DNA of 64,000 nucleotides from a bacterium (GCA_021786315.1 JAJYNN010000002.1:334997-398996), one strand, 5' to 3'; counted from the stretch's first letter, positions 3,225 through 60,713 are shown. The notes: a model not told the origin generated them from the sequence alone. Numbers and translations are program-made.

Positions 3225-3881
3225 ATGCTTGTACCCCCATTCCATTACCAGCTGAATAAATTAGTCCGCAGTTACATTGCCTCGGAGGTGTTAATTTGGT
3301 CGGCCTGGAACAGCGCCATGTCCATCATCGCCGTTTTTGCCACCAACAAGATTAAGGGAGGGGATGTGGCCATTGCCGCCACGGCTTTAAGCGTCCATTT
3401 AATGGTCCGGATGGGGGTGGAACTTTTTGCCGGTAAAGTTTTGTCTAATACCAATGAAACCAAAAAATTAGCGGTGGTGATTGCCGGAATATTCCTCATC
3501 AGCATAGCCTTTATCGGGTTTTCCTTTACCAGGTCAACTGCTCCTTTCTTTCTTTTTTACGCCTTGGCAGGGGTGGGGTTGGGAATTGCTGCCCCTTTAA
3601 AGAATTCACTTTTTGCGACCCACTTGGACAAAAACCGGGAAGCAATGGAGTGGGGAATTTATGATGCCTTAACTTTCATGGGCATGGCCGCTTCTTCGGC
3701 TATCGGAGGGGTGATTGCTAAGACTTACGGGTTTCAGATCCTGTTTTTGGTAGCAGCAGTAGTGAATTTAGGGGGAATTTTGCCTTATTACCTCTATGCT
3801 AAAAGGCGGCTGGATAAACTCATCCACAAGGACAAAGACCAGATGATCATCGAGAATTTGAATGAATTGGAAGAGGCTTAA
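3225..3881 (+). CDS. hypothetical polytopic membrane protein (transporter-like)
   Basis: 6 predicted TM helices, Gly-rich helices. Confidence 0.4.
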   Translation: MLVPPFHYQLNKLVRSYIASEVLIWSAWNSAMSIIAVFATNKIKGGDVAIAATALSVHLMVRMGVELFAGKVLSNTNETKKLAVVIAGIFLISIAFIGFSFTRSTAPFFLFYALAGVGLGIAAPLKNSLFATHLDKNREAMEWGIYDALTFMGMAASSAIGGVIAKTYGFQILFLVAAVVNLGGILPYYLYAKRRLDKLIHKDKDQMIIENLNELEEA

Positions 3882-5065
3882 ACCATATCCAGCACCAGGC
3901 CGCCCCAGGTAAAATTCTCCGCTCCCTGACCCTCCCCGGTTAGGGGGTTAAAATGTTCCCGAAATCCGGATTTTTGGATCAAGGTCAGGGAAGATTCCTT
4001 GATCTCCCTGGCAATGTCCTTAAAGCCGTAATTCTGTAAGCCTTTGTAGATAAACCAATTGGTTCCGATCCATATTGGTCCTCTCCAAAAGCCGTCAGGG
4101 TTAAAAGATGGTTCGTCCAGGGAAGTTGTCGGTACCGGGTAGGGGGTCCGGAACTCTTTTTTATTGAGCAGGTGGCTTTCAACTAGGGTTTTGGCTTCCT
4201 GAGGGCTTAAAATATTGGCAAACAGCGGAGCAAAAATAGCCCAGGTCTTAACCTTAATTTTTTGATAATTTTTCCCGTAAGTGGACCAGAATATTCCGTC
4301 TTCAAACATCAGTTTCCTCATGGCCCCCGAAATATTTTCCGCTTTTTCGGCAAAATAGACAGCATCGTGCGGGTGCCCGACTTTTTTGGCCAGCTCAGAG
4401 AGAAGTTTGAGGTTTGTCACCATAATGCAGTTAAAAGGCACGTCTTTGACCCAGAAAAAGTTCCGCATACAAAAAGGGGCATCGAAGTTACAGCTGATGT
4501 TCTGCTTTACCAGCTCAAACCTCCTTTTAGTGTTTTCTTCCAGTGTTTGTTTGGGTGGTAGGCCTAAAGGTTTATCAAAGCGGGGGGAGTTGTCTTCACC
4601 CGACTCATCCGGGTTCATAATGCCGATAAGGTGTTTTTCATGGGGATCACGTTCAGTTAGCAGGTACCTGTAAAAATGGTACAGGCCGGGGTAGACGGAT
4701 TTTACAAACTGTAAATCCTTATCTTTCTGGAAAATTTCCCAGACGGAATAAGCAATCATTGGGGGTTGGGTGAGGGTGCTGGTGCCGTTTTTACCCCATT
4801 TGATCAGGGGAAATTTGGTTTTATTGGGGTGGTTCCAATAAATCATATGGGGGATCATGCCGTTATCAAACTGTTTGGCAATCAGGGAAAAAATTTCCCG
4901 TTTGGCGCTGCTGCTGCTGAAGTGGTTTAGGATAACGGCATGGAAACAGGAATCCCAAAACCACTGGTAAGGATAAGAGACGGGAGAGGGGACGGTGTAC
5001 TGGAATTTTCCTCTGTGTCGGCGGTTTTTTAAAAGTACCTGCTGGCAGGCAATTGGCAAATTCAT
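3878..5065 (-). CDS. six-hairpin (alpha/alpha-toroid) glycoside hydrolase, GH63-like
   Basis: 'YPYQWFWDSCF' and C-terminal 'GFWRGPIWIGTNWFIYKGL' (WRGP[IV]W signature of GH63 / processing alpha-glucosidase-like enzymes). Confidence 0.55.
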   Translation of the reverse strand: MNLPIACQQVLLKNRRHRGKFQYTVPSPVSYPYQWFWDSCFHAVILNHFSSSSAKREIFSLIAKQFDNGMIPHMIYWNHPNKTKFPLIKWGKNGTSTLTQPPMIAYSVWEIFQKDKDLQFVKSVYPGLYHFYRYLLTERDPHEKHLIGIMNPDESGEDNSPRFDKPLGLPPKQTLEENTKRRFELVKQNISCNFDAPFCMRNFFWVKDVPFNCIMVTNLKLLSELAKKVGHPHDAVYFAEKAENISGAMRKLMFEDGIFWSTYGKNYQKIKVKTWAIFAPLFANILSPQEAKTLVESHLLNKKEFRTPYPVPTTSLDEPSFNPDGFWRGPIWIGTNWFIYKGLQNYGFKDIAREIKESSLTLIQKSGFREHFNPLTGEGQGAENFTWGGLVLDMV

Positions 5066-5178
5066 CTAACTTTATTATACATATTGACAAACAAGGCGCT
5101 TAATATACTATGAGAATAGTTAGCCAAAACGACTGGCTTTTAAGCACATTGTTTCTGCCCGAAGCAGCATAAAGCAAT

Positions 5179-6735
5179 GTGCTTGTTGTTTGGAAAAATA
5201 TCTTTATGGATATAACGGGAGGCAATTTAGGATTTAACGGTCACCATCAGGCAACAAAGGCTTTTACTTGTGATGAAGTTTTTTTAAAACATATCGATCC
5301 CCAAACCGGAGAGGTTGAAGTATCAAGTCCGGTAATAAAATTAAATGATTATTTATCCATTACGCCACCGGAGGATAGGCTCCGCTTATTAGGACTGGCA
5401 AATTCCCTAAAAGGAAGGAAGATCTCTTTTGTTAACGCCACCGCCGCGGGCGGGGGTGTTGCCATTATGCGCACCGCGCAAAGATTTTTACTGAAAGAAT
5501 TGGGGGTTGATGTCCGTTGGTTTGTTACTGAACCCAATGAGGAAGCTTTTAAGATTACTAAAGGTTGTTTCCATAACGTTTTTCAGGGAGTGGCGGATAA
5601 TTGGCTGACCGATGCGGATATGGAAATTTACCGGCAATGGACCGGCCATAATGCCCAAAGAATGGAAGCCGAGCTGGCAAAATCGGATATAGTGGTAATT
5701 GACGATCCGCAACCTTCAGGTTTGATTCCGCATATCAAAAAAATAAACCCGAACGTGAAGATTATTTTCCGCAACCATATTCATAGTTTGGGTAATCTAA
5801 TGGGCAAAAAAGGCACTGTCCAAAACCATTCCTGGCAATTTCTCTGGAAAAATGGAATCTCCCGGGCTGATTTATACGTTTATCACCCGGTGGAAGACTT
5901 TATACCGGCCAATGTGGCACCGGAAAAAACCGTGCTTATGCCTCCTTCGACAGATCCTTTAGACGGATTAAACAGGAATTTAACGGATGAAGAGATTCGC
6001 CGGGGGTTGGAATTTATCAACGAAAAGCTGGAGTTAAACGGCCATCAAAACCCTATTGACCTAGGCCGCCGTTACATTACCCAGATTGCCCGATTTGACC
6101 CCTCTAAAGGAATTCCTGACGTCCTGGAAGCTTACAGTTTATTTTATAAGAAAATGACGGAAAACGGTTTTACTAAAGCATCTATCCCCCAGTTGGTTAT
6201 AGCCGGCAACGGTTCAGTTGATGACCCGGACGGGATACCTGTTTTGGAAGACACGATGAAAAAACGGGAACATAGATATAAGGATATTGCTGATGATATT
6301 AAAGTGGTAAGAATTCCCCATAACGACCAGGCGCTTAATGCTTTACTTAGGGCAAGCTTCATTGTTTTACAGTTGTCTACCCGGGAAGGATTTGAATTTA
6401 AGGTGACCGAGGCAATCATGAAAGGCAAACCGGTTATCGCGTCAGAGGTGGGAGGCATTCCTCTTCAGATTATTCCTGGCGAGTCCGGTTATGTGGTCAA
6501 ACCGGGAGATACCCGGCAAGTGGCGGAACACCTGTTTTCTCTGGTCACTCAACCGGAAATGTATCGCCGTCTAAGTACAGGTGCTTTAAGACTTGCCTCC
6601 GCCAAAAATTACGAGTTTACAACTGTTCCCAATCTTATCAACTGGCTATGGCTGTTTAGGGAGCTTCTGGAAAATCCGGACTTTAAAGGCAACAGACAAA
6701 ATGTAAAGGACTTGGTTGACGGCGGCCGTTTATAA
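5179..6735 (+). CDS. GT4 glycosyltransferase, trehalose glycosyltransferring synthase (TreT)-like
   Basis: 'VNATAAGGGVA', 'RWFV', 'DDPQPSGLI', 'ARFDPSKGIPDVLEAY', 'REGFEFKVTEAIMKGKPVIASEVGGIPLQIIPGESGYVV' match the TreT/GT4 pattern from memory; true start may be an internal Met. Confidence 0.6.
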   Translation: MLVVWKNIFMDITGGNLGFNGHHQATKAFTCDEVFLKHIDPQTGEVEVSSPVIKLNDYLSITPPEDRLRLLGLANSLKGRKISFVNATAAGGGVAIMRTAQRFLLKELGVDVRWFVTEPNEEAFKITKGCFHNVFQGVADNWLTDADMEIYRQWTGHNAQRMEAELAKSDIVVIDDPQPSGLIPHIKKINPNVKIIFRNHIHSLGNLMGKKGTVQNHSWQFLWKNGISRADLYVYHPVEDFIPANVAPEKTVLMPPSTDPLDGLNRNLTDEEIRRGLEFINEKLELNGHQNPIDLGRRYITQIARFDPSKGIPDVLEAYSLFYKKMTENGFTKASIPQLVIAGNGSVDDPDGIPVLEDTMKKREHRYKDIADDIKVVRIPHNDQALNALLRASFIVLQLSTREGFEFKVTEAIMKGKPVIASEVGGIPLQIIPGESGYVVKPGDTRQVAEHLFSLVTQPEMYRRLSTGALRLASAKNYEFTTVPNLINWLWLFRELLENPDFKGNRQNVKDLVDGGRL

Positions 6736-37179: not shown

Positions 37180-38403
37180 ATGGAAACAATAGGTGATTAT
37201 GTTCATGAATGGGGTGGAAAACAGGCTTACCCCTGTCGAACCACTATTGACGATGAAACCTTCCGCGACGGGAGTCAGGCCTCTTATGTGCTGCAGCCCA
37301 CACTGGAAGAGAAGCAAACTGCGCTGCATATCATGGATGAGATTGGTATTGAGCATGCGGATATTGGTTTCCCCAGAAATGGTGAAACCGAGCTTGCTGA
37401 TGTGGTTGGGCTGGTCAGATACAAGCAGCGGAATGGTTTGAAAATTCAGTTAAGTTGTGCGGGAAGGACATTGGAAGAGGATGTCCAGTCTATTATTCAG
37501 GCTTCAGAAGCGGGGGGAGAGGCACTAAGGGCGGATCTTTTTATTGGGTCATCTGAGATCAGAAAACTGGCGGAAGATTGGGATTTAGTCAACCAGATGA
37601 TCCCTAATGTCAGAAAAAGTGTCACTTTGGCCGTAAAGGCGGGTTTGCCGGTGATGTTTGTAACTGAGGATACAACCAGGGCACATCCGGAAACTCTCCG
37701 TATACTTTATTCTGAGGCTATTAACTGTGGCGCGACTAGGATTTGTGTAGCGGATACTGTAGGGTATGCTACTCCACATAAAACTGCTGCTTTATTGGAG
37801 TTTACTAAAAAGGAGATCATCAAAGGCCAGGATATTAAGGTGGATTGGCATGGACACCGGGATCAGGGTTTAGCTTTAGCTAATGCGATAGCAGCTTTGA
37901 CTGCCGGTGTGGATTGTATTCACGCCACTGCCGGAGGGGTCGGAGAAAGGGCGGGTAATTTAGAGATGCATCTTCTCTTAAACTACCTCGTCCGCGAAAA
38001 TATTAATAACTATAATCTGAATCTACTTACTGAGTACTCTCAGTTTATGTCTAAAATTACCGGGGTTTCTATCCCGGTAAATGAGCCTTTAGTTGGGGAA
38101 GGTTCACTGGAGACTGCTTCCGGTGTCCACGCAGCGGCCATTCTAAACGCCCAAAAACACGGGCGTCCGGATTTGGCTGGAATTGTCTATTTTCCTTTTG
38201 ATCCGACAACGATTGGGCGCCGCATGGATATTAAAATCTCCCGCAAAAGCGGTCGGGCAAATGCCGTTCTGGTTTTAAAGGAGATGTTTAACGATGGCAC
38301 CGAAGATGAGGTTCAGGCTCTTTTGGCCGCCGCCCAAACAAGCAACCATTCTTTGTCTGACCAGGAAATCCGTTCAATTGCCAGAAGAGCTAAGAAATCT
38401 TAA
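37180..38403 (+). CDS. HMGL-like family synthase (2-isopropylmalate / homocitrate / citramalate synthase-like), short form
   Basis: 'DETFRDGSQ', 'VDWHGHRDQGLALANAIAALTAGVDCIHATAGGVGERAGN'; lacks the LeuA C-terminal regulatory domain. Confidence 0.75.
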   Translation: METIGDYVHEWGGKQAYPCRTTIDDETFRDGSQASYVLQPTLEEKQTALHIMDEIGIEHADIGFPRNGETELADVVGLVRYKQRNGLKIQLSCAGRTLEEDVQSIIQASEAGGEALRADLFIGSSEIRKLAEDWDLVNQMIPNVRKSVTLAVKAGLPVMFVTEDTTRAHPETLRILYSEAINCGATRICVADTVGYATPHKTAALLEFTKKEIIKGQDIKVDWHGHRDQGLALANAIAALTAGVDCIHATAGGVGERAGNLEMHLLLNYLVRENINNYNLNLLTEYSQFMSKITGVSIPVNEPLVGEGSLETASGVHAAAILNAQKHGRPDLAGIVYFPFDPTTIGRRMDIKISRKSGRANAVLVLKEMFNDGTEDEVQALLAAAQTSNHSLSDQEIRSIARRAKKS

Positions 38404-40346
38404 AGGTCTTTCGGAGAGCTTATTCGCCCCCGGATTGCGCTGGCAGCTACTACCTCGACATTGGCCAAAAAGGTGTTTCCCTTACCCATCCGTCCATAAA
38501 AGTTACGGTTAGTATCAGAAATAGTGACCTGATTCTCATTGGTTGAAGATCCGGGCCCGGCATTCATACAAGCTCCGCATCCCGGCATTAGTATCCTGGC
38601 TCCGCTTTGTTCAAAGATGTCAAAAAGGCCCAAACTTTTGGCTGTTTGATAAACAGCCCGGGAGTTGGCCTGGACATAAAGCTGGACATTACCGTCAACC
38701 CGTCGCCCATTTAAAATGGCTGCAGCTTTCTGGAGATCCTCTAAGTTGCCTCCGGTGCAGGAACCAATATAGGCAATATCAACAGGGACGCTGTTTTTGA
38801 CCCAGGATAAAGGTACGCCTCTTTGGGGATCGCCGGGCATGGCTACCATTGGCTCCAGCTTATTTAAATCAATATCTATCACATCGGCATACTGGGCGTT
38901 GCGGTCGCTTCGGACAAGTATGCGGGAAATTTCTTCCCGGGATAGTTTGTTTCGCCGTGCCAGGTGGCTAATAGTTTGTTCATTAGGCTCAATGATACCG
39001 GTGTAGGCGTTGCCTTCAATAGACATATTAGTTAAAACAGCCTGCTCGTCAAAGGGAATATCAGAAAGGGCAATTCCTCCAAACTCAAAAACCCGTCCGC
39101 TTCCCAGCCCCGAATCACGCAGCTTGGGCATAGCCAAGATATGCAGTATTAAATCCTTGGCGGTTACCCCGGCAGGCATTCTTCCGGCAATGTTGAACCT
39201 AATTGTTTCCGGGACAACCACGGCGATATCCCCAGTGGCCAATGAGGCCGCAAATTCCGAGGCGCCTTTACCGATAGCAAGCGCGCCTAAAGCTCCCAGA
39301 GTACAGGTGTGAGAGTCGTTCCCTACAATAACTTCACCGGGAAAAACATCATGTTTATGGAGCATCACCGAATGACAGATGCCTTCGACACCCTTATGCG
39401 GATCGTATCGGTAAACTTGGGCTTCTGAAAGGCTGGCAAAGTCATTTTGTAGCTGACGGAAAAATTGACTGGTAGAGTCATTCTCTAAAAGAGCCAGATG
39501 GTCTTCAAAAAAGGTAAAATTTTGTGGGTTGCGGATCCGGTAATCTTCTCCGAATTCTTTCCTCAAAGCGCCGATCCAAAGAGGGGATTGCAGCTCATAG
39601 CCATAACCATGATTGATTTGAATAAAGGCAGTTTGGCCGGGTTGCACATAATCAATACCGGCGGTTTCCTGGCTTTCGGGTTGCTGGACCACATGCCGGG
39701 CAATGATCTTTTCCACCATGGTCATTGGCCGCGCAACAGCACTTTCGGTAGAGAAGCGGGTTTTCCCTTCCAGCCTGGCTTGGGAGAAACCTAATAAACC
39801 TTTATGAAGAAGAATTTCTTTTTGCAAAGGATTTAAGCCGGAGATTAGCTGGTCAAAAGGAATCGGTTCCCGGTTCAGGAATCTTCTTCTGAGTTCCGGA
39901 TGATGGCCGTTAATAGTCATAATCCCATAGTTTTGACAATTTTCATAAAAAATACGTTCAAAACCAGAGGCGAGGACAAATTTAATGCCGCAGGCATCCA
40001 GGGCTAGAGGGGCATGTTCCCGGGAAGAGCCTCTCCCAAAAGATTTTCCGGCAACTACGGCTTCAAACCCGGCTTCCCGCATCTCACCCCGCCGAATTAC
40101 CTGGCTGGTTAATCCTGTAAGAAGATGGTCTCCCAGTTCCTGAGGGGTTCTGGAGGAGTAACAGGCAGCACTGGGGATAATATTATCGGTAGAAATAAAA
40201 TCAATTAAATCACCTTCATCGACATGGGTTAAAACGGATCCTTCCAGCTGGTGCCGGATTAAGTTGGGGTCTTTTGTAAGGAACAGAACTTTTCCCTGAA
40301 GTTTTATGGCTTCATTTTGGGAACCAATTTGTTTTTCCATGTTCAT
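38400..40346 (-). CDS. aconitase-family hydro-lyase, fused LeuD-like (N-terminal) and LeuC-like (C-terminal) domains (3-isopropylmalate dehydratase / homoaconitase-like)
   Basis: N-terminal 'FGRGSSREHAPLAL' (LeuD), 'GNDSHTCTLGALGALAIGKG', 'GSCTGGNLEDL', 'PGCGACMN' Fe-S ligands (LeuC). Confidence 0.8.
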   Translation of the reverse strand: MNMEKQIGSQNEAIKLQGKVLFLTKDPNLIRHQLEGSVLTHVDEGDLIDFISTDNIIPSAACYSSRTPQELGDHLLTGLTSQVIRRGEMREAGFEAVVAGKSFGRGSSREHAPLALDACGIKFVLASGFERIFYENCQNYGIMTINGHHPELRRRFLNREPIPFDQLISGLNPLQKEILLHKGLLGFSQARLEGKTRFSTESAVARPMTMVEKIIARHVVQQPESQETAGIDYVQPGQTAFIQINHGYGYELQSPLWIGALRKEFGEDYRIRNPQNFTFFEDHLALLENDSTSQFFRQLQNDFASLSEAQVYRYDPHKGVEGICHSVMLHKHDVFPGEVIVGNDSHTCTLGALGALAIGKGASEFAASLATGDIAVVVPETIRFNIAGRMPAGVTAKDLILHILAMPKLRDSGLGSGRVFEFGGIALSDIPFDEQAVLTNMSIEGNAYTGIIEPNEQTISHLARRNKLSREEISRILVRSDRNAQYADVIDIDLNKLEPMVAMPGDPQRGVPLSWVKNSVPVDIAYIGSCTGGNLEDLQKAAAILNGRRVDGNVQLYVQANSRAVYQTAKSLGLFDIFEQSGARILMPGCGACMNAGPGSSTNENQVTISDTNRNFYGRMGKGNTFLANVEVVAASAIRGRISSPKDL

Positions 40347-51152: not shown

Positions 51153-51968
51153 ATGAAGGCTTTATCAGTCAAATTAAAAGTTTTTGGGGTTTCGGCAGAA
51201 TTAACCAAACGCCAAAAGATTATTGTTGCCTCGGGTATCCTTTCTCTTGGGTTATTGTCCACTCAATTGGTGCCGTTTTATCTGGCTTACCGGTTTATTG
51301 CGGGCTTGACGGTTGCCGCTTATCTGCTTTCCCTTTGGGCTTTGTGGGAGGGAATGGACAGGAGAAAGGCGGTAATTTTGATGATCTTGCCGACTTTGTT
51401 TACCCTGGCCGTTGCCAGCTATTATTTTTTGTTGCCGGTCCGCTGGTTAACCAGAATTCCGGTGGCGACACTTTTCGGGCTGACTTTTTATACATTGCTT
51501 TTGTCCCAAAATGTCTTTAATGTGGCTTCCACCAGGACCATTCCTTTGTACAGGGTGGCCTCAACCACAGTTTTTATTTTAACTTTAATTACTTCATTTC
51601 TATTGTTTAATGTCATGTTTTCTTTGAACCTGTTTTTCCTCTGGAACGGGGTAGCGGTCTTTATCTTAACTTTTCCGCTGATTTTACAGGTTCTTTGGAC
51701 AATTGATATGGAAGCTGTTTCGAGCGTAATTTTAATGTATAGTTTGAGCCTATCTTTGGTAGTGGCGGAGATTGGGGTGGCCCTGTCTTTTTGGCCGCTT
51801 TCTAAGTCTATGGCTTCCTTAATGCTATCCACGGCCATTTATACAACCTTGGGAATTGGATCTGATGCCTTAAAGGAACGGCTGAGTAGAGGAGTGGTCT
51901 GGGAATATTTAGGCTGGGGAGCGGTGATCTTCCTTGTAGCTTTACTCGGCACTTCCTGGACGGGGTAG
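51153..51968 (+). CDS. hypothetical polytopic membrane protein
   Basis: 7-8 TM helices. Confidence 0.45.
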   Translation: MKALSVKLKVFGVSAELTKRQKIIVASGILSLGLLSTQLVPFYLAYRFIAGLTVAAYLLSLWALWEGMDRRKAVILMILPTLFTLAVASYYFLLPVRWLTRIPVATLFGLTFYTLLLSQNVFNVASTRTIPLYRVASTTVFILTLITSFLLFNVMFSLNLFFLWNGVAVFILTFPLILQVLWTIDMEAVSSVILMYSLSLSLVVAEIGVALSFWPLSKSMASLMLSTAIYTTLGIGSDALKERLSRGVVWEYLGWGAVIFLVALLGTSWTG

Positions 51969-51974
51969 ACCCGA

Positions 51975-53299
51975 GTATCGGAATATCGGAGTATCAGAAT
52001 GTCAAAAGATTCCGACACTCCGAAACGCAGATATTCTGACACGCTGAATAAAAAGGGGAGAATAGTGTGTTGGAAAGCCCCAAATGAAGATGCAAAAAGT
52101 TGTTTGCCTTTATAGCATCTTCTCGCAGTACGCTTCGCGTACAATTGGAAGTATTCACCATAAAAAAGTGAATACTTCATACGATAGAGGAGGTAGAGAG
52201 GCGAAAACTATGGGACATTGTTTGATATAGTTGATATAGTTTGATATAGTTGCTAGCCTCGAATGTGGATAACTATAAGACATATCAGAGTATCAGAATA
52301 TCGGAACATCAGTGTGTCGGGAGACCAGAACATCAGATGATCAGAGTGTAGAGAACGAGAGAATACACTACTCTGGGGAGGCTACGACAAGATATATTTT
52401 TACCATTCTTACAAGACGACTGCTAACTTCTGTTTACACGCGTGAAAAATTAGGGATCTCCTTTGAAAGAGAGGAGAGCTCCCGTTACTTTATAAAAATA
52501 CGCACAAATTAGAACACGAAGCTGTGAGTTTGCCTCTACTTCAAGATAGATCCAGCCTCACACCCCGCTAAACAGAAGCCCTACTCAATTACTATGTCGC
52601 ACAATGTATCTTATGCGACGTCATGGATGCCTGTAACCAGGGGGAGACCCACCGGTCGCCAAAGCGACCGAATTTATAATTTTCAATTAACAATTTTAAA
52701 TTCTTTATTTTGTACCTATTTTAAATACTTTCCTATCGAAAAATTTTTCTTAATTCTTAACTCTTAATTCATAATTCTCGTTTTTTAGGTTTAGGGCTTT
52801 GGGACAAGCTAATCTGGGATGATGAAGTGTACATCCTCCCCCCGTTTCGACCGTTTTAGGGGCCTTCTAGAGCCTCGTGCGTAAATAGCCAGAGTGCCAG
52901 AGTTTCGGCGTATCAGAGTGTCGGAAAAGACATTAATAAACCCAGGTCTTATGCAAAGCGTTTAATCTTTTGGATAAAATTCGATATTCTTCTAATAAAT
53001 TGTTGGCTTCTACAGAAAAATTTTCATCAATCATTGATAAGGCTCTTAGATGAGTAATTATTTCGTCACTGGAACCAATAGCTATCAATAGATATCTTCT
53101 AAATTCCTTTTGTGAATTACGCTTAGCGAAGCCTTCAGCCTGTGGTAGCTTATTAGCTAATTCGTATAACTCCTTTAGTAACCTTAGTGATTCTTGGTAA
53201 ACCACTAAGTCTGTTACATCCTTAATTTCCATCAATTTTATCTTATTCACGAGTCCTTTTCCGGTTAACCGACATTCCGATACTCCGATATTCTGATAC
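51975..53299. mobile_element. cassette bounded by inverted 29-bp octamer-array ends (27/29 identity), containing a repeat-rich non-coding kb and a four-helix-bundle gene
   Basis: left 51975-52003 GTATCGGAATATCGGAGTATCAGAATGTC; right 53271-53299 is its reverse complement with 2 mismatches. Confidence 0.35.
52933..53232 (-). CDS. four-helix-bundle protein (23S rRNA IVS protein family), free-standing
   Basis: 'MEIKDVTDLVVYQESLRLLKELYELANKLPQAEGFAKRNSQKEFRRYLLIAIGSSDEIITHL'; the ORF track's 5' extension to 53556 is considered spurious. Confidence 0.7.
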   Translation of the reverse strand: MEIKDVTDLVVYQESLRLLKELYELANKLPQAEGFAKRNSQKEFRRYLLIAIGSSDEIITHLRALSMIDENFSVEANNLLEEYRILSKRLNALHKTWVY

Positions 53300-53368
53300 G
53301 TCGCACAATATTTATCCTCTTTCGAGGCTATTCGACTACCTTTTAATCTATGATAGTATGAAATAGAG

Positions 53369-54844
53369 ATGGCTTTGTTTGGAAATAAATTTAAGGTAAA
53401 GGATCTAGTTTCCCTCACTCTCCTACTCTTGTTAATGGCTGCTATTCCTTTGGGGGTGAAATTAATTGAACAACAACAGATATTAAAAGGAAGGGCATCC
53501 TCGAATCTGGATAGTTGTGTCAATAAATTAATCTTTGGGTTTAATGGCCCGGTCAATAATAAAATTAGAGAGCTTTTTACCAGCCCTTCACTTAATTTTA
53601 TTCCAGTTGCTTGGAAGGATATCCAGCCAAATCAAAGTTCTGCTTACGATTTTTCCAAAGTTGATAAATTAATAAATGACACCATTGCCGAAGGCCGGAC
53701 TCCAACTATTAAGTTTTGTGATGGTGATTGTTTCCCTGATTGGGCCAGGCAAATGGACACCGCTCCCGAGAGAACTTATTGCTGTAGTACTGATTATGTG
53801 TGCCGAGTATTAAAGGAAGATACCGGTACTGCAAACGCCTTTTCCGATGTGGTTAAAGCGATGGTGAACCGCTATAAAGATAAGGTGCATTATTGGGATT
53901 ATGGTATTGAGCCAAATTGCCGGGGTTACAACCCACAAAAATATACCGGTTTGCTGAAAAACTTTGCCAACTCTGTTAGGTCACAGGATTCAGGAGCTGT
54001 TATTGTCGGAGGACATTTGGCGGGAGCCAACATCGACTATCTGCGGGCGATGTATGCCGCCGGGGCTAAACCGTATTTTGACCGGCTCTCCGTTGACCCT
54101 TATGGTGAGCCGTTGGACTTTAATGCCTTGGAAGTTGCCCATAATTATATGGTTAGTCAAGGAGATGGCAATAAAAAGATCTGGTTGGGTGAATGGGGTT
54201 TGGCGACTAACAATGATGAGACAAAACAAGCAGATCAAGTCCAGATAGGCCTAAATTATTTGGCAAATCAATCTTGGATTGAAGCTGCTTTTTATCACAA
54301 TTTTGAATGTGAGCTTTGGACTAGCACTTGTTCCCCCGGAACTCCCGGTTACTTAGGCTTTGGTTTAACTAAAAGTGATGGCAGCGTGAAGCTTGCCTAC
54401 AATACCTTTAAGCATGCGGTGAGTGCTTGTATGGCTGCAACCCCTACGGCTCAGCCTTCCCCTATTGCCAGCCCGACAACTTCCGCTTCTCCGACCGGAA
54501 CCATATCCCCTGTGCCGACGGTTTCCTGGGCTCAAAGTACCCCAACCCCAATTTCTTCATCCCAGGGTAATAATTCCGGTAGAGCTACCTCCACCTCTAC
54601 TCCATCTTATAAGAGGAACTTGTCCAAAGCCTTCCCTACCCCGACTCCCCTGCCTACCTTGTCTCAGGAAACCCTCAAGTTTGACTATAACGGTGATAAT
54701 AAAGTTAATAGTTTTGATGTTGGTTTGTTTATCCAAGGATGGCTGAAGAATGATGCTTCCGGAATTGTTAAATTTGACGCCAACGGCGATGGCATTATTA
54801 ACTCACTGGATTATTCCCTTTTGGTCAAGAGTGTTAATCCTTAA
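53369..54844 (+). CDS. N-terminally anchored GH5-like (clan GH-A TIM-barrel) glycoside hydrolase with Pro/Thr linker and C-terminal dockerin module
   Basis: 'WDYGIEPN' (NEP-like acid/base), 'IWLGEWGLA' (nucleophile context); dockerin Ca-loops 'DYNGDNKVNSFD' and 'DANGDGIINSLD'. Confidence 0.6.
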   Translation: MALFGNKFKVKDLVSLTLLLLLMAAIPLGVKLIEQQQILKGRASSNLDSCVNKLIFGFNGPVNNKIRELFTSPSLNFIPVAWKDIQPNQSSAYDFSKVDKLINDTIAEGRTPTIKFCDGDCFPDWARQMDTAPERTYCCSTDYVCRVLKEDTGTANAFSDVVKAMVNRYKDKVHYWDYGIEPNCRGYNPQKYTGLLKNFANSVRSQDSGAVIVGGHLAGANIDYLRAMYAAGAKPYFDRLSVDPYGEPLDFNALEVAHNYMVSQGDGNKKIWLGEWGLATNNDETKQADQVQIGLNYLANQSWIEAAFYHNFECELWTSTCSPGTPGYLGFGLTKSDGSVKLAYNTFKHAVSACMAATPTAQPSPIASPTTSASPTGTISPVPTVSWAQSTPTPISSSQGNNSGRATSTSTPSYKRNLSKAFPTPTPLPTLSQETLKFDYNGDNKVNSFDVGLFIQGWLKNDASGIVKFDANGDGIINSLDYSLLVKSVNP

Positions 54845-54889
54845 GGTTTCACTTGACAACCTTTATATATATGGTCTACGCTAAATTCA

Positions 54890-55177
54890 GTGGATCCTGA
54901 CATGAACCAATTTGATTCGATTAAAGAGCAAACCAGTAAAAGGAAAAATGTTTTAACTGCCTTAATGGTTGTAGCGGCAATTCTAATAATTCCCTTCGGA
55001 GTAAAGCTTATCCAGCAACAACAGGAATTAAAGTCAAAAGCGGCTAATGATTCCATTCAGTTTGCCGGTGATAGTGTCAAGTGTGATACGGCCGGTAAAT
55101 GTACCACCACTTCCAAGACAGTCCAGGTCCAGTTGCGTTCGCCGCTTGGACCGCCGGCCAAACTACCGCAGCATTAA
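54890..55177 (+). CDS. small N-terminally anchored protein sharing the 'P[LF]GVKLI[EQ]QQQ' motif with the preceding gene
   Basis: TM 'LTALMVVAAILIIPFGVKLIQQQQELKSK'; same frame as the next gene, separated by a single TAA. Confidence 0.4.
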   Translation: MDPDMNQFDSIKEQTSKRKNVLTALMVVAAILIIPFGVKLIQQQQELKSKAANDSIQFAGDSVKCDTAGKCTTTSKTVQVQLRSPLGPPAKLPQH

Positions 55178-55180
55178 AAT

Positions 55181-57148
55181 ATGGAATATCTTAAAAAAGC
55201 CTACATTTTAATAATTCCACTTTCCCTCTCCTTATTTTTATTTGTAGCCTTTTTCGTTAGCCCGGTAAAAAGTTATGCTTGTACTCCTGGTGAAAGTGAG
55301 GTTTGTCCTAGCATAAAGCAATGTACTAGTGGCCCTCATCAGGGAGAAGCTTGTGCATCCGGGCACAAATATTGTACAAATTTAAACCCTGCAACTGGTG
55401 AATATGATAACGATGTAACACCTTATTGGACCGATTGTGTGCAGGAGGTAGATAATTGTGGTACACAGTGTACTTCGGCTACAGTTTCTCCGACAGGTTC
55501 GACTGGTAATTGTAGCGGTAATGCCAATACTAAATGTGGATCAATCCCTTGGAGCACTGTAAGCTCAGAGCTGAAAAGTGCTGGTTATGGCGGGCCGTTT
55601 GATTGTAGTCAAACAGAGCTGGATAGTTACAATGGGGTTAAGGTTTGTGAAGGAACAAGTCCTACTGGAAGCCAAAATGGTTCGTGCCCTTTGAGCGGAT
55701 ATAGTGTTGATAACGCTTTGGCTACCTGTATTGCGAGTAAGGACAGCAGCCTGCCGGGAAGTATTAAGAAGTTAGGTAGTGACAACGGTCAGGATTGGAG
55801 TGGCTGCTCAAACCAGCAATTAATTGCCAAGTGGTGTACGGATATTAATTCCAGCGGTTGTAACGATTACAAAAACGGTGCTTGCGCTTCCGGGCCGACT
55901 GCCACACCCACTGTGGCGGTTGCAACTACTGAGTACAGAATTTCTGAAACCCGGTTTGGCCGAAGCGACAGTGGAACCGGTTCCCCTCAATGGGTTGCCT
56001 ATAATAGTGATGACGGTTCTGAACCGATAACCGTTCCTTATACTTTTACCAATGGTAATCCCGGTGATACTTTAACCCTTTGGGTGCAATTTAAGGACAA
56101 TAAGGGCGATGTAACTGAGCCTAAACCTTACTCTATTAAATATATCGGCCCTGACCCAAAGATTACCAGCGCTAGTTGTACCTTTGACCCATCCGGCCAG
56201 GGAACCTTGGTAACTTTGACCGGATCTAATTTCAATACCCACGACGAACAAGGCACGGGCGGTGTTAAGATTAACGGCCAGCAGGCGGATATTATCTCTT
56301 GGGGCGAGGATACTCCGGGTATTACTCCTACAGGTGCTGTTTCTCCCACTATGTCGGTTACACCTACAACTTCCGTATCCCCAACTGCCAGGCCGGGTGG
56401 GACTGTCTGTGCCCAGGTTATAACTTCGGCAAAAAATGCTACCGGGACTGAGTGTAAAGATTTTCCAACCCCTTGTGATGTTCCGGCGGGATGGGTGGTT
56501 GTCAACAGCTGTTCGGGCGGCTCAACTGTTTTGGGTGAAAGCGTTACCAGATCAAAGGTTGTGGCTAAAATCAAAGACCAGCTTCCCGGAAATGCCAGGG
56601 TTCCGCTTTTGCTGACCATGGATGACGGCCGGGCTGTCACGGCTACCTGTAGCATAAACACCACCACTGTCTCATTCCAGGCAAAAATTGGCTGCCGCAC
56701 CTCCGGTGACTATGCCGAAAACGGTGTCAACATTAATATCATGGAGGACATCCGTGGCGCTAAACCTTTGGTCAGGCAAAAGGTCAATATTGACGCTGCA
56801 GGAAATCTTCCCTCTGATTTTGCTCCGGTGCTGGAAGTTGGTAAGAAATACAAAATGTTAATTAAAGCCCCCAATACTCCAACCCGCAGAATTGAGTTTA
56901 CCCCCTCACTAGGATCGAATATTTTGTCTGACGTCAGTATGGATGTTGGTGATATTGCCCCGGCTGGACATGCTGACGGTAAGATCAACGCTTTGGATAA
57001 GTCTGAGCTTGCCAGAGAGTTTTCCGCAGGCTGTAGCACCACAACTGCCAAAGCGGGAGACTTTAACCAGGATGGTTGTGTCAATGCCTTGGACTGGTCT
57101 TGTATGAGGGAAAATATTAATAAGGAGGACGAGGACACAATCCAGTAA
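55181..57148 (+). CDS. secreted Cys-rich protein with Pro/Thr linkers and C-terminal dockerin-like module
   Basis: signal peptide; >30 Cys in N-terminal 230 aa; 'GHADGKINALD' and 'DFNQDGCVNALD' Ca-binding loops. Confidence 0.55.
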   Translation: MEYLKKAYILIIPLSLSLFLFVAFFVSPVKSYACTPGESEVCPSIKQCTSGPHQGEACASGHKYCTNLNPATGEYDNDVTPYWTDCVQEVDNCGTQCTSATVSPTGSTGNCSGNANTKCGSIPWSTVSSELKSAGYGGPFDCSQTELDSYNGVKVCEGTSPTGSQNGSCPLSGYSVDNALATCIASKDSSLPGSIKKLGSDNGQDWSGCSNQQLIAKWCTDINSSGCNDYKNGACASGPTATPTVAVATTEYRISETRFGRSDSGTGSPQWVAYNSDDGSEPITVPYTFTNGNPGDTLTLWVQFKDNKGDVTEPKPYSIKYIGPDPKITSASCTFDPSGQGTLVTLTGSNFNTHDEQGTGGVKINGQQADIISWGEDTPGITPTGAVSPTMSVTPTTSVSPTARPGGTVCAQVITSAKNATGTECKDFPTPCDVPAGWVVVNSCSGGSTVLGESVTRSKVVAKIKDQLPGNARVPLLLTMDDGRAVTATCSINTTTVSFQAKIGCRTSGDYAENGVNINIMEDIRGAKPLVRQKVNIDAAGNLPSDFAPVLEVGKKYKMLIKAPNTPTRRIEFTPSLGSNILSDVSMDVGDIAPAGHADGKINALDKSELAREFSAGCSTTTAKAGDFNQDGCVNALDWSCMRENINKEDEDTIQ

Positions 57149-57194
57149 ACCGGGAGTTGTAGACAAGCAATCTTGGTTATGTTTAGATAAATAT

Positions 57195-57803
57195 ATGGAG
57201 CAAACACAGGGAATAATCAGTAAACTAGCTACCAGAAGAAACATTGTTACCGTGATTGTGGTTATTTTGGTGGCTGAGATAGCTTGGGGCGTTTGGACTT
57301 TAACCAAACCCACCAAACAAGGGTCCACCGAGCGGGGTTTGGTGTCTGAAGCCAAAGCCTCTTCTGCCTCCGTCTTTTTACAGACCCCTAAGTCCAGCTA
57401 CACTATTGGGGAAAAAGTGGTTGTAACCATCAGCATCTCCTCTACCCGCCACACCGATGGAACGGATTTAATCATTAAATATGATCCGAAGGTATTGGCG
57501 ATGGATCCTGCTGTAACTAAAGCCCCGGTGGCTGTCGGCAAGATTTATACTGAGTACCCAATAAATACCGTGGATGAAAAAGCCGGGAAAATTACTGTTT
57601 CCGGAATTACTTCTGCTCCGTCCGGAGTAGTCCCGCAAGGGGTTTTTGGAACTGTCACATTCGTGGCTAAAGCTTCCGGAAAAACAAAAATCGCTTTGGA
57701 CTTTACTCCCGGAAGCACCTCAGATTCCAATGTTGTGGAATCAAAAACAGCCCTGGATGTCCTTGATGGGGTGAAAGACGTCGACCTGACAATCGTGCCA
57801 TGA
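57195..57803 (+). CDS. N-terminally membrane-anchored single-cohesin protein
   Basis: TM 'IVTVIVVILVAEIAWGVWTL'; cohesin-like 'GEKVVVTISISS...DLIIKYDPKVL', 'GKITVSGITSAPSGVVPQGVFGTVTFVAKASGKTKIALDF'. Confidence 0.55.
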   Translation: MEQTQGIISKLATRRNIVTVIVVILVAEIAWGVWTLTKPTKQGSTERGLVSEAKASSASVFLQTPKSSYTIGEKVVVTISISSTRHTDGTDLIIKYDPKVLAMDPAVTKAPVAVGKIYTEYPINTVDEKAGKITVSGITSAPSGVVPQGVFGTVTFVAKASGKTKIALDFTPGSTSDSNVVESKTALDVLDGVKDVDLTIVP

Positions 57804-58540
57804 AAAGATTATTGACCCGCTGCCTTTTGTCTGTAGCCGCTTTGGCGACCATATCCTTTTCTGCCGCTCCTGCATTTGCTACCGGAGCGACACTTTCGTT
57901 GTCCCCCAGTACCGGAACCTTTAATAAAGGCTGCGGCTTTACACTTTCAATTAATTTAGACACCGGTGGCGCCCAAACAGACGGCACCGACGCTATTTTA
58001 TTCTATGACCCTACCCGTTTTACCGCTAATGCCATTCACAGCGGAACAATTTATGCAGATTACCCGGGCAATAATATCGATGCCACAAATGGAAAGATTA
58101 CTGTTTCCGGATTGTCTTCTGTAAGCAGCGCTTTTTCAGGGGCAGGGACGTTGGCGACAATAGACTTTGCGGTAGCAGATGATGCTCCGGCCGGCACCAG
58201 CCAGATTAAGTTTGATTTTGACCCCGCTGATAAAACCAAAACTACCGATTCCAATGTTGTGGAAAGAGGGACGGTTACAGATATCTTAAACCAAGTGGTA
58301 GACGGTAACTACACTATTGGTACCGGGGCCTGCGGCACCACCAATTCAGGGACAACAACGACAACTACGAATAATACAGCCACCGGTTCCGGTGTTTGGA
58401 CTAAGACACCTGTTGGCGGGCCTCTCCCGACCAAAACTCCGGTTCTTCCCCAATCCGGGAACATTTCTCCGACGGTTTTAGTGGCCGTCGTTGGCAGCGC
58501 TTTGACTATTTTAGGCATCTTAGGTCTCGCGATACTTTAA
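57800..58540 (+). CDS. secreted single-cohesin protein with Thr-rich stalk and C-terminal LPQSG plus hydrophobic anchor
   Basis: signal peptide; cohesin-like 'GCGFTLSINLD...DAILFYDPTRF', 'GKITVSGLSSVSSAFSGAGTLATIDFAV'; 'LPQSGN' then TM, no basic tail. Confidence 0.55.
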   Translation: MKRLLTRCLLSVAALATISFSAAPAFATGATLSLSPSTGTFNKGCGFTLSINLDTGGAQTDGTDAILFYDPTRFTANAIHSGTIYADYPGNNIDATNGKITVSGLSSVSSAFSGAGTLATIDFAVADDAPAGTSQIKFDFDPADKTKTTDSNVVERGTVTDILNQVVDGNYTIGTGACGTTNSGTTTTTTNNTATGSGVWTKTPVGGPLPTKTPVLPQSGNISPTVLVAVVGSALTILGILGLAIL

Positions 58541-58541
58541 T

Positions 58542-59459
58542 ATGGCTCTCTCTGCTCTTGTCACCGATTTCCTGGAATACCTGGAGGTAGAACGTCATGC
58601 CTCCCAAAAAACGATCGAAAATTACGACCACTACCTTAAAAGGTTTGTCGAGTTTGCCGGGGATATTGATCCGAGGGCAATCAATTTGGCCTTGATCCGT
58701 AAGTTTAGGCTGCACTTAAACCGCTGGATTGATCCTAAAACCAAGAAGCCCTTAAAAAGGGTGACCCAAAATTATTTCATGATTGCTCTCCGGGCATTCT
58801 TAAAATATCTCGCCCGCCAGGACGTAGATACTTTATCTCCGGAAAAGGTGGAGCTGGGAGAAACCGATGCCGCTCCGATCAAAGTTTTGGATGAGGAAGC
58901 CTTAAAGAGACTATTAGAGGCGCCGGATGTTTTGGACAAGTCCGGGCTTCGGGATAAAGCCCTTTTGGAAACGCTGTTTTCTACCGGCCTGCGGGTTTCC
59001 GAGTTGGCTTCTTTAAATAAGGACACTGTAAACCTCGACAGAAAAGAATTTTCAGTGGTCGGGAAAGGTTCCAAGGAACGGATTGTCTTTTTGTCTGACG
59101 ATGCAGCCAAATGGCTTGACCAGTACCTTAAAAGCCGCAAGGACCCCTATAAACCGCTGTTTATCCGCTATCAGGGAGCAGATGACCCGGCGGATAATGG
59201 GGAAAATATGCGGCTTACTTCCCGCTCGATCCAAAGGATTGTGGAAAAATATGTTAAAGGTGTGGGACTTCCGGTAAAAGCCACTCCCCATACTTTGCGC
59301 CATAGCTTTGCTACGGATTTGTTAATCAATGGAGCCGATATCCGTTCGGTGCAGGAAATGCTGGGCCACTCCAACATAGCCACCACCCAAATTTATACCC
59401 ATATCACGAATAAGCACCTCAAGGATGTCCACAAAAGTTTTCATTCTGGAAATAAATAA
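58542..59459 (+). CDS. tyrosine recombinase, XerC/XerD family
   Basis: 'HTLRHSFATDLLINGADIRSVQEMLGHSNIATTQIYTH' (R..HxxR...Y catalytic residues). Confidence 0.85.
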   Translation: MALSALVTDFLEYLEVERHASQKTIENYDHYLKRFVEFAGDIDPRAINLALIRKFRLHLNRWIDPKTKKPLKRVTQNYFMIALRAFLKYLARQDVDTLSPEKVELGETDAAPIKVLDEEALKRLLEAPDVLDKSGLRDKALLETLFSTGLRVSELASLNKDTVNLDRKEFSVVGKGSKERIVFLSDDAAKWLDQYLKSRKDPYKPLFIRYQGADDPADNGENMRLTSRSIQRIVEKYVKGVGLPVKATPHTLRHSFATDLLINGADIRSVQEMLGHSNIATTQIYTHITNKHLKDVHKSFHSGNK

Positions 59460-59489
59460 GGGATATGGTGTATGTAGTAAGGGGTATGG

Positions 59490-59864
59490 ATGGAAAATCA
59501 GAAAATAAAGTCTTTTACTGAGCTTAACGCCTGGCAAGAGGGCCATCAATTAGTTTTAGCAATATATCGTTTAAGTAAATCATTTCCTCAAGAAGAGAAA
59601 TTTGGATTAACAGATCAAATAAGGAGGGCATCTGTTTCTATAACTTCTAACTTAGCCGAGGGTTTTTCGAGATTAGGCAGAAAAGAGAAGTTACAGTTTT
59701 ATCGCATGTCTTTGGGTTCCTTAACTGAATTACAAAATCAACTGATTATTGCAAGGGACTTAGAATACGTGACTTTTGAAGAATTCAGGAAAATAGAAGA
59801 CTTATCTGTGGTAGTTAGTAAATTATTAAATGGTTTACTTAAATCTCTTTCCCGTAATACATAA
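59490..59864 (+). CDS. four-helix-bundle protein (23S rRNA IVS protein family), free-standing
   Basis: 'LNAWQEGHQLVLAIYRLSKSFPQEEKFGLTDQIRRASVSITSNLAEGFSR'. Confidence 0.8.
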   Translation: MENQKIKSFTELNAWQEGHQLVLAIYRLSKSFPQEEKFGLTDQIRRASVSITSNLAEGFSRLGRKEKLQFYRMSLGSLTELQNQLIIARDLEYVTFEEFRKIEDLSVVVSKLLNGLLKSLSRNT

Positions 59865-59867
59865 TAC

Positions 59868-60713
59868 TTACCCCTTACCCCATAAACTTTTCAGTAATTC
59901 CACATTATTCTTATCCGGTCCTTGTCCTGCCTCCCCTGGGATTTCCAGGATAAAGGGTACATTTTGTAGTTTGGGATGGTTTATTAAAGCCCGGAAACCT
60001 TCCAGTCCGATATAACCTTGGCCGATATTCTCGTGCCTGTCTTTTTTGCTTCCCAGCTCTGTTTTGGAATCATTGGCATGGATGGCCACCAATTTTTCTA
60101 CCCCAATTTCCCGGTTTATCACCTCTACCCACTCCTCTACTTTCTCTTTTGTTCTTAAATCATATCCTGAGGCAAAAGCATGCTGGGTATCCAAACAAAC
60201 CTTTAGCCTGGGATTGTTGACTGCCTTGATAATTTGCCCAAGTTCCTCAAGGGTATCCCCTATTAAATTCCCTGCTCCGGCCGAATTTTCCAGGATCAAA
60301 TTAGCCTCACCGGTTTGGCTCAAAATAGCTTTGATGGCTTGGACAACCTGGCCTATTGCCTGCTCCTGGGTAGTGCCTTTATATGACCCAATATGGAAAA
60401 TAGTTCCCCCTATTCCCAACTTTTCCGCCGTCTTTTGGGAATAAATGAGCCAATTGACGGATTTTTGTAGGTGCTCCTGGTTAGGTGTAGCCAAGCTGAC
60501 AAGGTAAACTGCGTGGATAAAGTTAGGGCCGATCCCTGATTCTTGGGCTTTAGCCCGGTATTTTTGAATTTCCTCTTCCGGATGGCTTATTTGAACCCAT
60601 TGCTGAGGCGGGGTGATAAATATTTGGGTGCATTCTGCTCCCAGCTCTTCTGCCCGGTTAAAACTTAGATCCAGTGATCCGGCAGCTGAAACATGAGCAC
60701 CCACCTTTGGCAT
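59868..60713 (-). CDS. nfo: endonuclease IV (AP endonuclease family 2)
   Basis: 'GAHVSAAGSLDLSFNRAEELG', His/Glu metal-site pattern; 281 aa. Confidence 0.9.
   Translation of the reverse strand: MPKVGAHVSAAGSLDLSFNRAEELGAECTQIFITPPQQWVQISHPEEEIQKYRAKAQESGIGPNFIHAVYLVSLATPNQEHLQKSVNWLIYSQKTAEKLGIGGTIFHIGSYKGTTQEQAIGQVVQAIKAILSQTGEANLILENSAGAGNLIGDTLEELGQIIKAVNNPRLKVCLDTQHAFASGYDLRTKEKVEEWVEVINREIGVEKLVAIHANDSKTELGSKKDRHENIGQGYIGLEGFRALINHPKLQNVPFILEIPGEAGQGPDKNNVELLKSLWGKG

Follow-up and report, generated by a model that had tools for sequence, protein, structure and literature searches.

Positions 53369..58540 of a 64,000-nucleotide (nt) stretch of bacterial DNA (GCA_021786315.1, JAJYNN010000002.1:334997-398996; the whole stretch is hereafter called the window) carry five genes that probably encode a cohesin-dockerin module for cell-surface display, of a non-cellulosomal kind, in a Candidatus Daviesbacteria bacterium. 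Two short neighbouring genes each encode a protein with a single cohesin and an anchor, and two longer genes upstream encode exported proteins that end in dockerins. Pfam recovered both halves of the system: Dockerin_1 (PF00404) scored over its curated cut-off (22.9 bits) in both large proteins, and Cohesin (PF00963, cut-off 24.1 bits) in both small ones. These matches, the cohesin fold predicted for the second small protein and the conservation of the Asp/Asn positions in the calcium-binding loops agree with an earlier reading of the same DNA (the original prediction), which had proposed a cohesin-dockerin cluster here. Homologs of the cluster carry the names Candidatus Daviesbacteria, Microgenomates or Patescibacteria in database matches; the host is therefore taken to be a Candidate Phyla Radiation (CPR) bacterium, assigned by sequence similarity to Candidatus Daviesbacteria (Microgenomates). 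The locus was also recovered in independent read-set assemblies.

Gene order and a conserved triad at a fixed site

The original prediction described four consecutive co-directional genes. These four open reading frames (ORFs) lie where it had placed them, but a fifth gene (54890/54902..55177) among them had been overlooked. All five ORFs are closely spaced on the + strand (53369..58540), and a XerC-like gene follows directly:

53369..54844, + strand: accessory cargo 1, an exported glycoside hydrolase (GH) predicted to belong to clan GH-A (GH39/PslG-like), 491 amino acids (aa)
54902..55177, + strand: leader-only mini-protein, 91 aa (95 aa if a GTG start at 54890 is used)
55181..57148, + strand: core cargo 2 (Cys-rich head, core and X-dockerin-like module), 655 aa
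57195..57803, + strand: cohesin 1, 202 aa, with an N-terminal transmembrane (TM) anchor and one cohesin module
57800..58540, + strand: cohesin 2, 246 aa, with a C-terminal anchor
58542..59459, + strand: XerC/XerD-like tyrosine recombinase (Pfam domains), a conserved neighbour

The cargo 2 ORF begins 3 nt past the stop of the mini-protein and in the same frame, and the cohesin 2 gene begins within the last 4 nt of cohesin 1, an overlap kept in 41 of 50 species. The xerC gene begins 1 nt past the cohesin 2 stop (median gap across relatives, 8 nt) and is probably co-transcribed. An N-terminal signal or TM segment is present in all five cluster proteins. NCBIfam gave no family match for any of the five, and a database look-up of the cluster returned no names for the window's own proteins. 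No dockerin-type calcium loops were found elsewhere in the 64 kb window, and neither a sortase nor further cohesin or dockerin genes were detected in a scan of 40 further window ORFs with a length of 150 aa or more. A scan for promoters and terminators gave counts not above those of shuffled sequence.

Species-representative genomes were scanned with the cohesin 2 profile, which returned 62 loci, one per Daviesbacteria/Microgenomates species genome; features were scored with locally built hidden Markov models (HMMs), and the denominators below are the loci assessable for each feature. The shared order is YebC, RuvC, DUF5656, variable cargo, cohesin 1, cohesin 2 and XerC, with GyrA further on, and it was seen around homologs of the enzyme as well as around distant cohesin 2 homologs. 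In 50/53 loci cohesin 1 immediately precedes cohesin 2, and in 53/60 XerC immediately follows it. Immediately upstream of cohesin 1, the cargo 2 core was present in all of the loci that could be assessed (46/46), and the atypical dockerin of cargo 2, here called DocB, in 45/46. Between DUF5656 and cohesin 1, the GH core was found in only 2/33 loci, the canonical dockerin of the enzyme (DocA) also in 2/33, and an extra tyrosine integrase in 14/33. The conserved unit is thus a triad, made up of cargo 2 and the two cohesins, which occupies a fixed chromosomal site and has xerC close behind it. The glycosidase is an occasional add-on rather than part of the core. A dedicated role in the docking of a glycosidase, as originally suggested, is not supported, because the GH occurs in 2/33 loci and its homologs often have no dockerin, while the triad is essentially universal.

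The conservation of the segments, measured as median identity relative to the window, revealed a steep gradient:

XerC: 73%
cohesin 2 domain: 66%
RuvC: 65%
DocB: 44%
cohesin 1 domain: 40%
cargo 2 core: 32%, with partial coverage

For the Cys-rich head of cargo 2, similarity went undetected in 59/62 loci. Relatives also encode adaptors with both a cohesin and a dockerin, multi-cohesin proteins of up to 1522 aa, in which two to three cohesins are combined with Ig-like or CarboxypepD_reg domains, and a third cohesin 1-like gene (L008 7504..9348; P0311; P0236, P0272, P0283; L009 5774..6379). Judged from these architectures, hierarchical cohesin-dockerin assemblies appear to occur in this CPR group, and the window therefore represents the minimal form of a broader CPR cohesin-dockerin repertoire.

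Many metagenome-assembled genomes (MAGs) with a Daviesbacteria-type locus (e.g. L015, L016 and L018) are titled 'uncultured Gammaproteobacteria bacterium'. These titles look like placeholders or mislabels, because the sequences and the synteny match Daviesbacteria loci.

Cohesins, dockerins and their predicted pairing

The two small proteins have the following parts:

cohesin 1, aa ~17-35 (window 57243..57305): TM anchor with a near-invariant Glu28
cohesin 1, aa ~57-202: cohesin module
cohesin 2, aa 1-27: signal peptide
cohesin 2, aa 28-178: cohesin module with invariant C45 and C178
cohesin 2, aa 179-215: Thr/Pro-rich stalk (TTTTTT/Pro)
cohesin 2, 58445..58459: LPQSG
cohesin 2, 58463..58537: conserved glycine-zipper TM helix at the C-terminus; the protein ends ...GILGLAIL and has no basic tail

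Cohesin 1 matched Pfam Cohesin with an E-value of 1.5e-6 (28.9 bits), and all of the 24 chains that its family profile found in the Protein Data Bank (PDB) are cohesins, which confirms the original prediction of a cohesin here. The best profile matches are type II cohesins of A. cellulolyticus ScaB (3l8q, 1.1e-8) and of a C. thermocellum anchoring protein (5g5d_A, 1.1e-7), so that cohesin 1 is type II-like by sequence. Its homologs number 418 representatives at E<=1e-10, mostly of about 200 aa.

Cohesin 2, a paralog with 34% identity to cohesin 1, gave a stronger Pfam match (E 4.8e-9, 37 bits). The AlphaFold2 (AF2) model built with 30 homologs is a confident beta-sandwich with pLDDT >90 over aa 30-150, and the top 48 PDB matches that Foldseek returned for it are all cohesins, as had been predicted for 57800..58540. 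The best of them are the type I CaCohA2 of C. acetobutylicum (TM-score 0.70-0.75), a type I ScaB cohesin and the C. cellulolyticus cohesin. At the level of sequence, a single-sequence PDB search with cohesin 2 gave no match, and the profile search found only 4ums (E 0.022). More than 800 clusters of cohesin 2 homologs were found at 55-75% identity.

The signal peptide, the poly-Thr stalk, the LPQSG motif and the C-terminal hydrophobic anchor without a basic tail, all described in the original prediction, are present in cohesin 2. In the family, LPxxG is degenerate (missing in 42/120 homologs) and the basic tail is usually absent, and the tail helix conserves G232, L235, G239, G242 and L243, the residues of a glycine zipper. 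NCBIfam gave no LPXTG-anchor match for cohesin 2, and sortase is reported to be near-ubiquitous in Microgenomates (PMC6744442). Because LPxxG is degenerate, the basic tail usually absent and the helix conserved in sequence, the evidence favours a tail retained as a TM anchor over one cleaved by sortase, although sortase processing could still occur by analogy with ScaE and Sca2, two known cohesin anchors. The two anchor helices may also pair within the membrane, as suggested by the near-invariant Glu28, the glycine zipper G232/G239/G242 and the 4-nt translational coupling.

The two large proteins are divided as follows:

cargo 1 (enzyme), aa 1-43: leader, with TM helix 12-30 plus GVKLIEQQQILKGRA
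cargo 1, aa ~50-355: (beta/alpha)8 barrel
cargo 1, aa 357-433: Pro/Thr/Ser linker
cargo 1, aa 438-490 (54680..54838): canonical two-loop dockerin, DocA
cargo 2, aa 1-33: signal peptide
cargo 2, aa 34-208: hypervariable Cys-rich head with 14 Cys
cargo 2, aa 209-587 (55805..56941): conserved beta-rich core with a TIG/IPT module
cargo 2, aa 588-655 (56942..57145): atypical X-dockerin-like module, DocB, with loops GDIAPAGHADGKINALD and DFNQDGCVNALD

Cargo 2 matched Dockerin_1 over aa 599-646 (E 3.6e-6, 27.5 bits), with a weak TIG match. It had been described as a protein with more than 30 cysteines that ends in a second dockerin-like pair; the cysteines number 28, and of the pair only the second loop, DFNQDGCVNALD at 57059, is canonical and invariant in the homolog alignment. 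The first loop, AGHADGKINALD, is degenerate: of the ligand positions, 5, 9 and 12 alone are retained, together with an invariant Asp upstream. Apart from this loop, alignments showed the predicted conservation, with the Asp/Asn calcium ligands (positions 1, 3, 5, 9 and 12) kept in all dockerin-bearing homologs. The same comparison showed a variable head and a conserved C-terminus of cargo 2. Dockerins make up 27 of the 30 PDB matches of the DocB profile, and a profile of the preceding X module plus DocB extends about 40 residues N-terminal of the dockerin only for type II X-dockerin (X-Doc) chains (E 1.6e-5 to 2.4e-3), the junction-spanning matches being 5k39_B, 2b59_B, 3kcp_A, 5g5d_B, 4wi0_B and 4u3s_B. 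The first loop of DocB, 'GDIAPxGxxDGKINxxD', also resembles ScaA GDMAIGGTQDGAINLED.

The enzyme carries the duplicated C-terminal calcium-binding loop that had been claimed for it: Dockerin_1 matched aa 438-490 (E 8e-10, 39.2 bits), and both loops, DYNGDNKVNSFD at 54683 and DANGDGIINSLD at 54776, are canonical (Asp/Asn 1, 3, 5, 9, 12) and kept in the homologs P0002, P0003, P0014 and P0015. In its AF2 model the barrel has pLDDT >90, the Pro/Thr/Ser linker is disordered, the dockerin is helical and folded, and the leader forms one long helix (aa 10-43). The model identifies the catalytic domain as a clan GH-A (beta/alpha)8 barrel with acid/base and nucleophile Glu placed as in the clan. The earlier label 'clan GH-A/GH5-like TIM barrel' is therefore right as to the clan but not as to GH5, for which Pfam gave 17.1 bits, under the cut-off of 23.5; structurally the enzyme is closest to GH39/PslG. 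The putative acid/base E181 (GIEPN) and nucleophile E275 (GEWG) are both invariant in 20 homologs and align with the corresponding Glu residues of GH5/PslG-like relatives. In the close GH family, G[I/L]EPN stands at the acid/base position (window enzyme aa 176-184) instead of the canonical NEPN of those relatives, and the Cys motifs CDGDCFPDW, YCCSxDYVC and NFECELWTSTCSPG are conserved; these features suggest a separate clan-A subfamily, rich in disulfides, that recognises the substrate 2-position differently. Compared with PslG of Pseudomonas aeruginosa and other GH39 enzymes, identity is only 16-18% and there is no Pfam GH39 match; GH39 enzymes have a C-terminal beta-sandwich that the window enzyme lacks, and the latter differs further in being Cys-rich, in bearing a leader and a dockerin and in having G[I/L]EPN for NEPN. 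The majority of its close homologs have no dockerin. One of them, P0012, is fused to NlpC/P60 and glucosaminidase domains, which points tentatively to glycans of the bacterial envelope, and not to plant fibre, as the substrate.

What had been taken for a membrane anchor of the enzyme is a conserved leader motif common to most cargo proteins of such loci. This leader consists of a TM helix followed by 'P[LF]G..L..QQ..KS[RK]A', often plus a ~45-aa 'SPLGPP' segment, and is lineage-specific; figures from our regular-expression census of the motif are lower bounds, as the census is under-sensitive. The mini-protein at 54902..55177 contains a TM helix, GVKLIQQQQELKSKA and a ~45-aa segment ending 'LRSPLGPP', and it duplicates, as a separate protein, the leader module that in relatives forms part of the cargo itself, as in the 920-aa protein of L004 (7192..9954). 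Other free-standing leader mini-proteins of 85-130 aa were found in L003 (7166..7438), L007 (11384..11671), L010 (6047..6436) and L011 (3904..4161). The leader-only mini-protein has no Pfam or NCBIfam family match. Readthrough or recoding at the junction of the mini-ORF and cargo 2 was considered and rejected: the stop is a plain TAA, and in L003 the two genes lie in different frames.

Three independent and individually weak lines, namely mirror-tree analysis, the X-Doc junction alignment and a CaDoc0917/CaCohA2 match, led us to infer two orthogonal pairs, X-Doc with the type II-like cohesin 1 and DocA with the type I-like cohesin 2, to which we give roughly even chances. In the mirror-tree analysis, over 42 species, DocB distances correlated with those of cohesin 1 (r 0.61, and 0.56 as a partial correlation controlling for XerC and cohesin 2) and much less with those of cohesin 2 (r 0.30; partial 0.12). 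Correlation with the divergence of the adjacent xerC was -0.02 for DocB, 0.09 for cohesin 1 and 0.34 for cohesin 2 (pairwise, L012-L073). Saturation, diversifying selection or exchange of the DocB/cohesin 1 pair from one lineage to another may account for the near absence of correlation in DocB and cohesin 1. The cohesin partners of the type II X-Doc complexes, or close relatives of those cohesins, are the ones matched by the cohesin 1 profile. For DocA, the best PDB dockerin matches are to CaDoc0917 (weak, E 0.02-0.06), which was crystallised with CaCohA2, the cohesin that cohesin 2 matches best in structure.

Proposed display mechanism, alternative explanations and known systems

In the mechanism that we propose, the two translationally coupled single-cohesin proteins would serve as membrane-anchored sockets, cohesin 1 being held by its N-terminal TM helix and cohesin 2, on its Thr/Pro stalk, by the C-terminal LPxxG/TM anchor. 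Exported proteins would plug into these sockets with their C-terminal calcium-binding dockerins. The constant ligand would be cargo 2, with its fast-evolving Cys-rich head, Ig-like/TIG stalk and X-dockerin-like tail, which would probably dock on the type II-like cohesin 1 and serve as an adhesin or recognition protein. The accessory GH39/PslG-like glycosidase, predicted to be a retaining enzyme, would probably dock on the type I-like cohesin 2 and so put a polysaccharide-cleaving activity at the cell surface.

Several observations weigh against this mechanism. Cohesin 2 is universal, yet canonical dockerins are rare at the locus, so that its usual ligands go unseen there and may lie elsewhere in the genome or be non-existent. 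The first dockerin loop of cargo 2 has lost two canonical calcium ligands, and in the enzyme the Asn that canonically precedes the acid/base Glu is an Ile. The tail of cohesin 2 is without the basic residues of a sortase signal, and the 64 kb window has no sortase gene. An N-terminal TM leader, if retained, makes the geometry of display in cis awkward. As to the pairing, a mirror-tree correlation can stem from shared local history or similar rates rather than contact, and the PDB sequence matches behind the pairing of DocA are weak (E 0.02-0.06).

The original prediction framed the cluster as a mini-cellulosome, and a minimal cellulosome, in which anchored cohesins organise glycoside hydrolases for the nutritional breakdown of plant or environmental polysaccharides, has to be weighed. 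A dockerin-bearing clan-A glycosidase does stand at the head of the cluster, two dockerin enzymes occur in L003, other dockerin-bearing GH5-like enzymes share the same leader (P0014, P0015, P0040), and expressed cohesin and dockerin proteins of a Microgenomates MAG (Candidatus Shapirobacterales) have been published as a cellulosome (10.1101/2021.08.21.457207). However, no multi-cohesin scaffoldin was found in the window, both cohesin proteins being monovalent and multi-cohesin proteins occurring only in other organisms; Pfam detected no carbohydrate-binding module (CBM) in the cluster proteins; and the single enzyme of the cluster is GH39-like, falls under the GH5 cut-off and belongs to no cellulase family, with no GH5/9/48 assignment. 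Moreover, the GH core and canonical dockerins each occur in 2/33 loci versus a non-enzymatic X-dockerin protein that is universal, and most GH homologs are without a dockerin. The framing therefore does not fit, and we regard a cellulosome as improbable. Adhesion in trans, with cargo tethered by an uncleaved TM leader and dockerins binding the cohesins of sibling cells to give aggregation or biofilm, seems to us equally unlikely. It would make use of the conserved TM leader of most cargo, whose KSRA lies 14-16 residues past the hydrophobic core, beyond the typical distance of a signal peptidase I site, and which AF2 renders in the enzyme as the single long helix; but in the window the signal peptide of cargo 2 is of the ordinary kind and the leader is a separate mini-ORF, and a hypervariable head is hard to square with self-self adhesion.

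The cohesin-like proteins could also have a structural role in the envelope, such as forming a heterodimeric membrane stalk, and bind no dockerins, the dockerins being calcium-stabilising domains only. The conservation of cohesin 2 at the level of housekeeping proteins, the TM-TM pairing suggested by the near-invariant Glu and the glycine zipper, and the presence in the PDB of non-cellulosomal cohesin-like modules without known partners (2jh2, 2xdh) would all suit such a role. Against it, the cohesin pair is accompanied by a dockerin protein in 45/46 loci, DocB divergence tracks that of cohesin 1, and the adaptor proteins of relatives carry both cohesin and dockerin; we hold this explanation to be very improbable. 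The display module thus remains the reading that we prefer. A bolder version of it, in which the triad is a host- or substrate-recognition organelle of Daviesbacteria, with constant sockets evolving at housekeeping rates, an exchangeable receptor-binding head under diversifying selection and room for extra dockerin-tagged effectors, is speculative and on balance unlikely; if it is true, the GH39-like enzyme would be an effector that attacks a host surface glycan.

Among known systems, the closest analogs are the single-cohesin anchoring scaffoldins ScaE of Ruminococcus flavefaciens, which binds X-dockerin proteins, and Sca2 of R. bromii, from the 'amylosome'. Cohesin 2 shares their order of parts, with a single cohesin between a signal peptide and a Thr/Pro linker and then an LPxxG-type motif and a hydrophobic segment, and the ScaE and ScaG cohesins (2zf9, 4n2o) are among its structural matches. 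Unlike them, it is best matched by type I rather than type III cohesins; its LPxxG is degenerate in the family, with no basic tail and a conserved TM helix, so that TM retention has at least the same likelihood as cleavage by sortase; the host is a CPR bacterium; and its translation is coupled to that of a second cohesin, which has an N-terminal anchor. ScaE and Sca2 are described as sortase-anchored at the cell surface, and Sca2 as a general anchor for non-cellulase dockerin proteins (PMC4611034).

The type II pairs (CipA X-Doc/SdbA of Clostridium (Acetivibrio) thermocellum and ScaA X-Doc/ScaB of A. cellulolyticus) share with the window a protein that ends in a beta-rich module and a dockerin; the cargo 2 profile spans the X-Doc junction, and the cohesin 1 profile matches the partner cohesins. 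The X-dockerin protein of the window differs in having no cohesins, and hence in not being a scaffoldin, the anchor is a TM helix instead of SLH domains, and the similarity in sequence is low. Non-cellulosomal systems of Archaeoglobus fulgidus (2xdh) and Clostridium perfringens (2jh2, 2w1n, 2vo8), all among the structural matches of cohesin 2, resemble the cluster in their use outside plant cell-wall degradation. In those systems soluble enzymes are linked together, whereas here two dedicated membrane-anchored monovalent cohesins stand in a conserved operon with one constant ligand.

The original prediction also took this to be probably the most novel system of the window, a claim that was overstated, since 'cohesin domain-containing' or 'dockerin type I domain-containing' already stands in public databases as the name of some homologs and cohesin and dockerin proteins had been reported as expressed in the Microgenomates MAG cited above. 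A literature search found no paper joining 'Daviesbacteria' and 'cohesin'. The features that appear to be new are the conserved triad with its fixed position, the combination of constant sockets with a hypervariable head, the two pairs that are putatively orthogonal, the leader common to cargo proteins and the GH39-like enzyme as an accessory. How uncultured CPR/Patescibacteria outside Saccharibacteria attach to or feed on partners is largely unknown, and the triad gives a hypothesis that can be tested with no need for cultivation; in a Saccharibacterium, a dockerin protein has been found essential (PMC10633639). These data also call for caution against reading cohesin and dockerin matches in CPR genomes as a cellulosome or as cellulose degradation, and the cluster may be a source of new orthogonal cohesin-dockerin pairs for use in protein engineering.

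Recombinases, repeats and other features of the window

The variable cargo region often lies between two recombinase genes, with xerC in 53/60 loci and the second integrase in 14/33. The coupling of xerC and the frequent second upstream integrase could reflect recombinase-assisted cassette exchange at the locus.

Both flanks of the cluster carry a bAvd / 23S_rRNA_IVP-like four-helix-bundle gene, at 52933..53250 (- strand) and 59490..59864 (+ strand). The former is bracketed by inverted repeats 51975-52003 / 53271-53299, which are 93% complementary (segment 51965..53300), and lies among arrays of 8-nt period, GTATCAGA / ATATCGGA; the latter is bracketed by inverted repeats 59468-59491 / 59864-59887. 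From their sequence context, these genes look like IVS-type cassettes located outside rRNA. The bAvd-like flanks prompted a search for a diversity-generating retroelement (DGR) acting on the cluster, which was rejected, as no template/variable repeat pair was found in 51900-60000 and no reverse transcriptase was seen in the window.

After DUF5656, a gap of 0.8-1.4 kb without a called conserved protein gene was observed in the window (51969..53368), in L003 (2337..3683) and in L004 (3349..4570). Rfam, in gathering or E-value mode, returned nothing credible as a structured RNA in the 1.4 kb gap of the window.

Elsewhere in the window, at 3881..6732 and 37180..40346, an MGH1-like glycoside hydrolase adjoins a TreT-type trehalose synthase and an HMGL-like synthase adjoins an aconitase-family protein, two pairs of metabolic genes that stand out in a supposedly minimal CPR genome.

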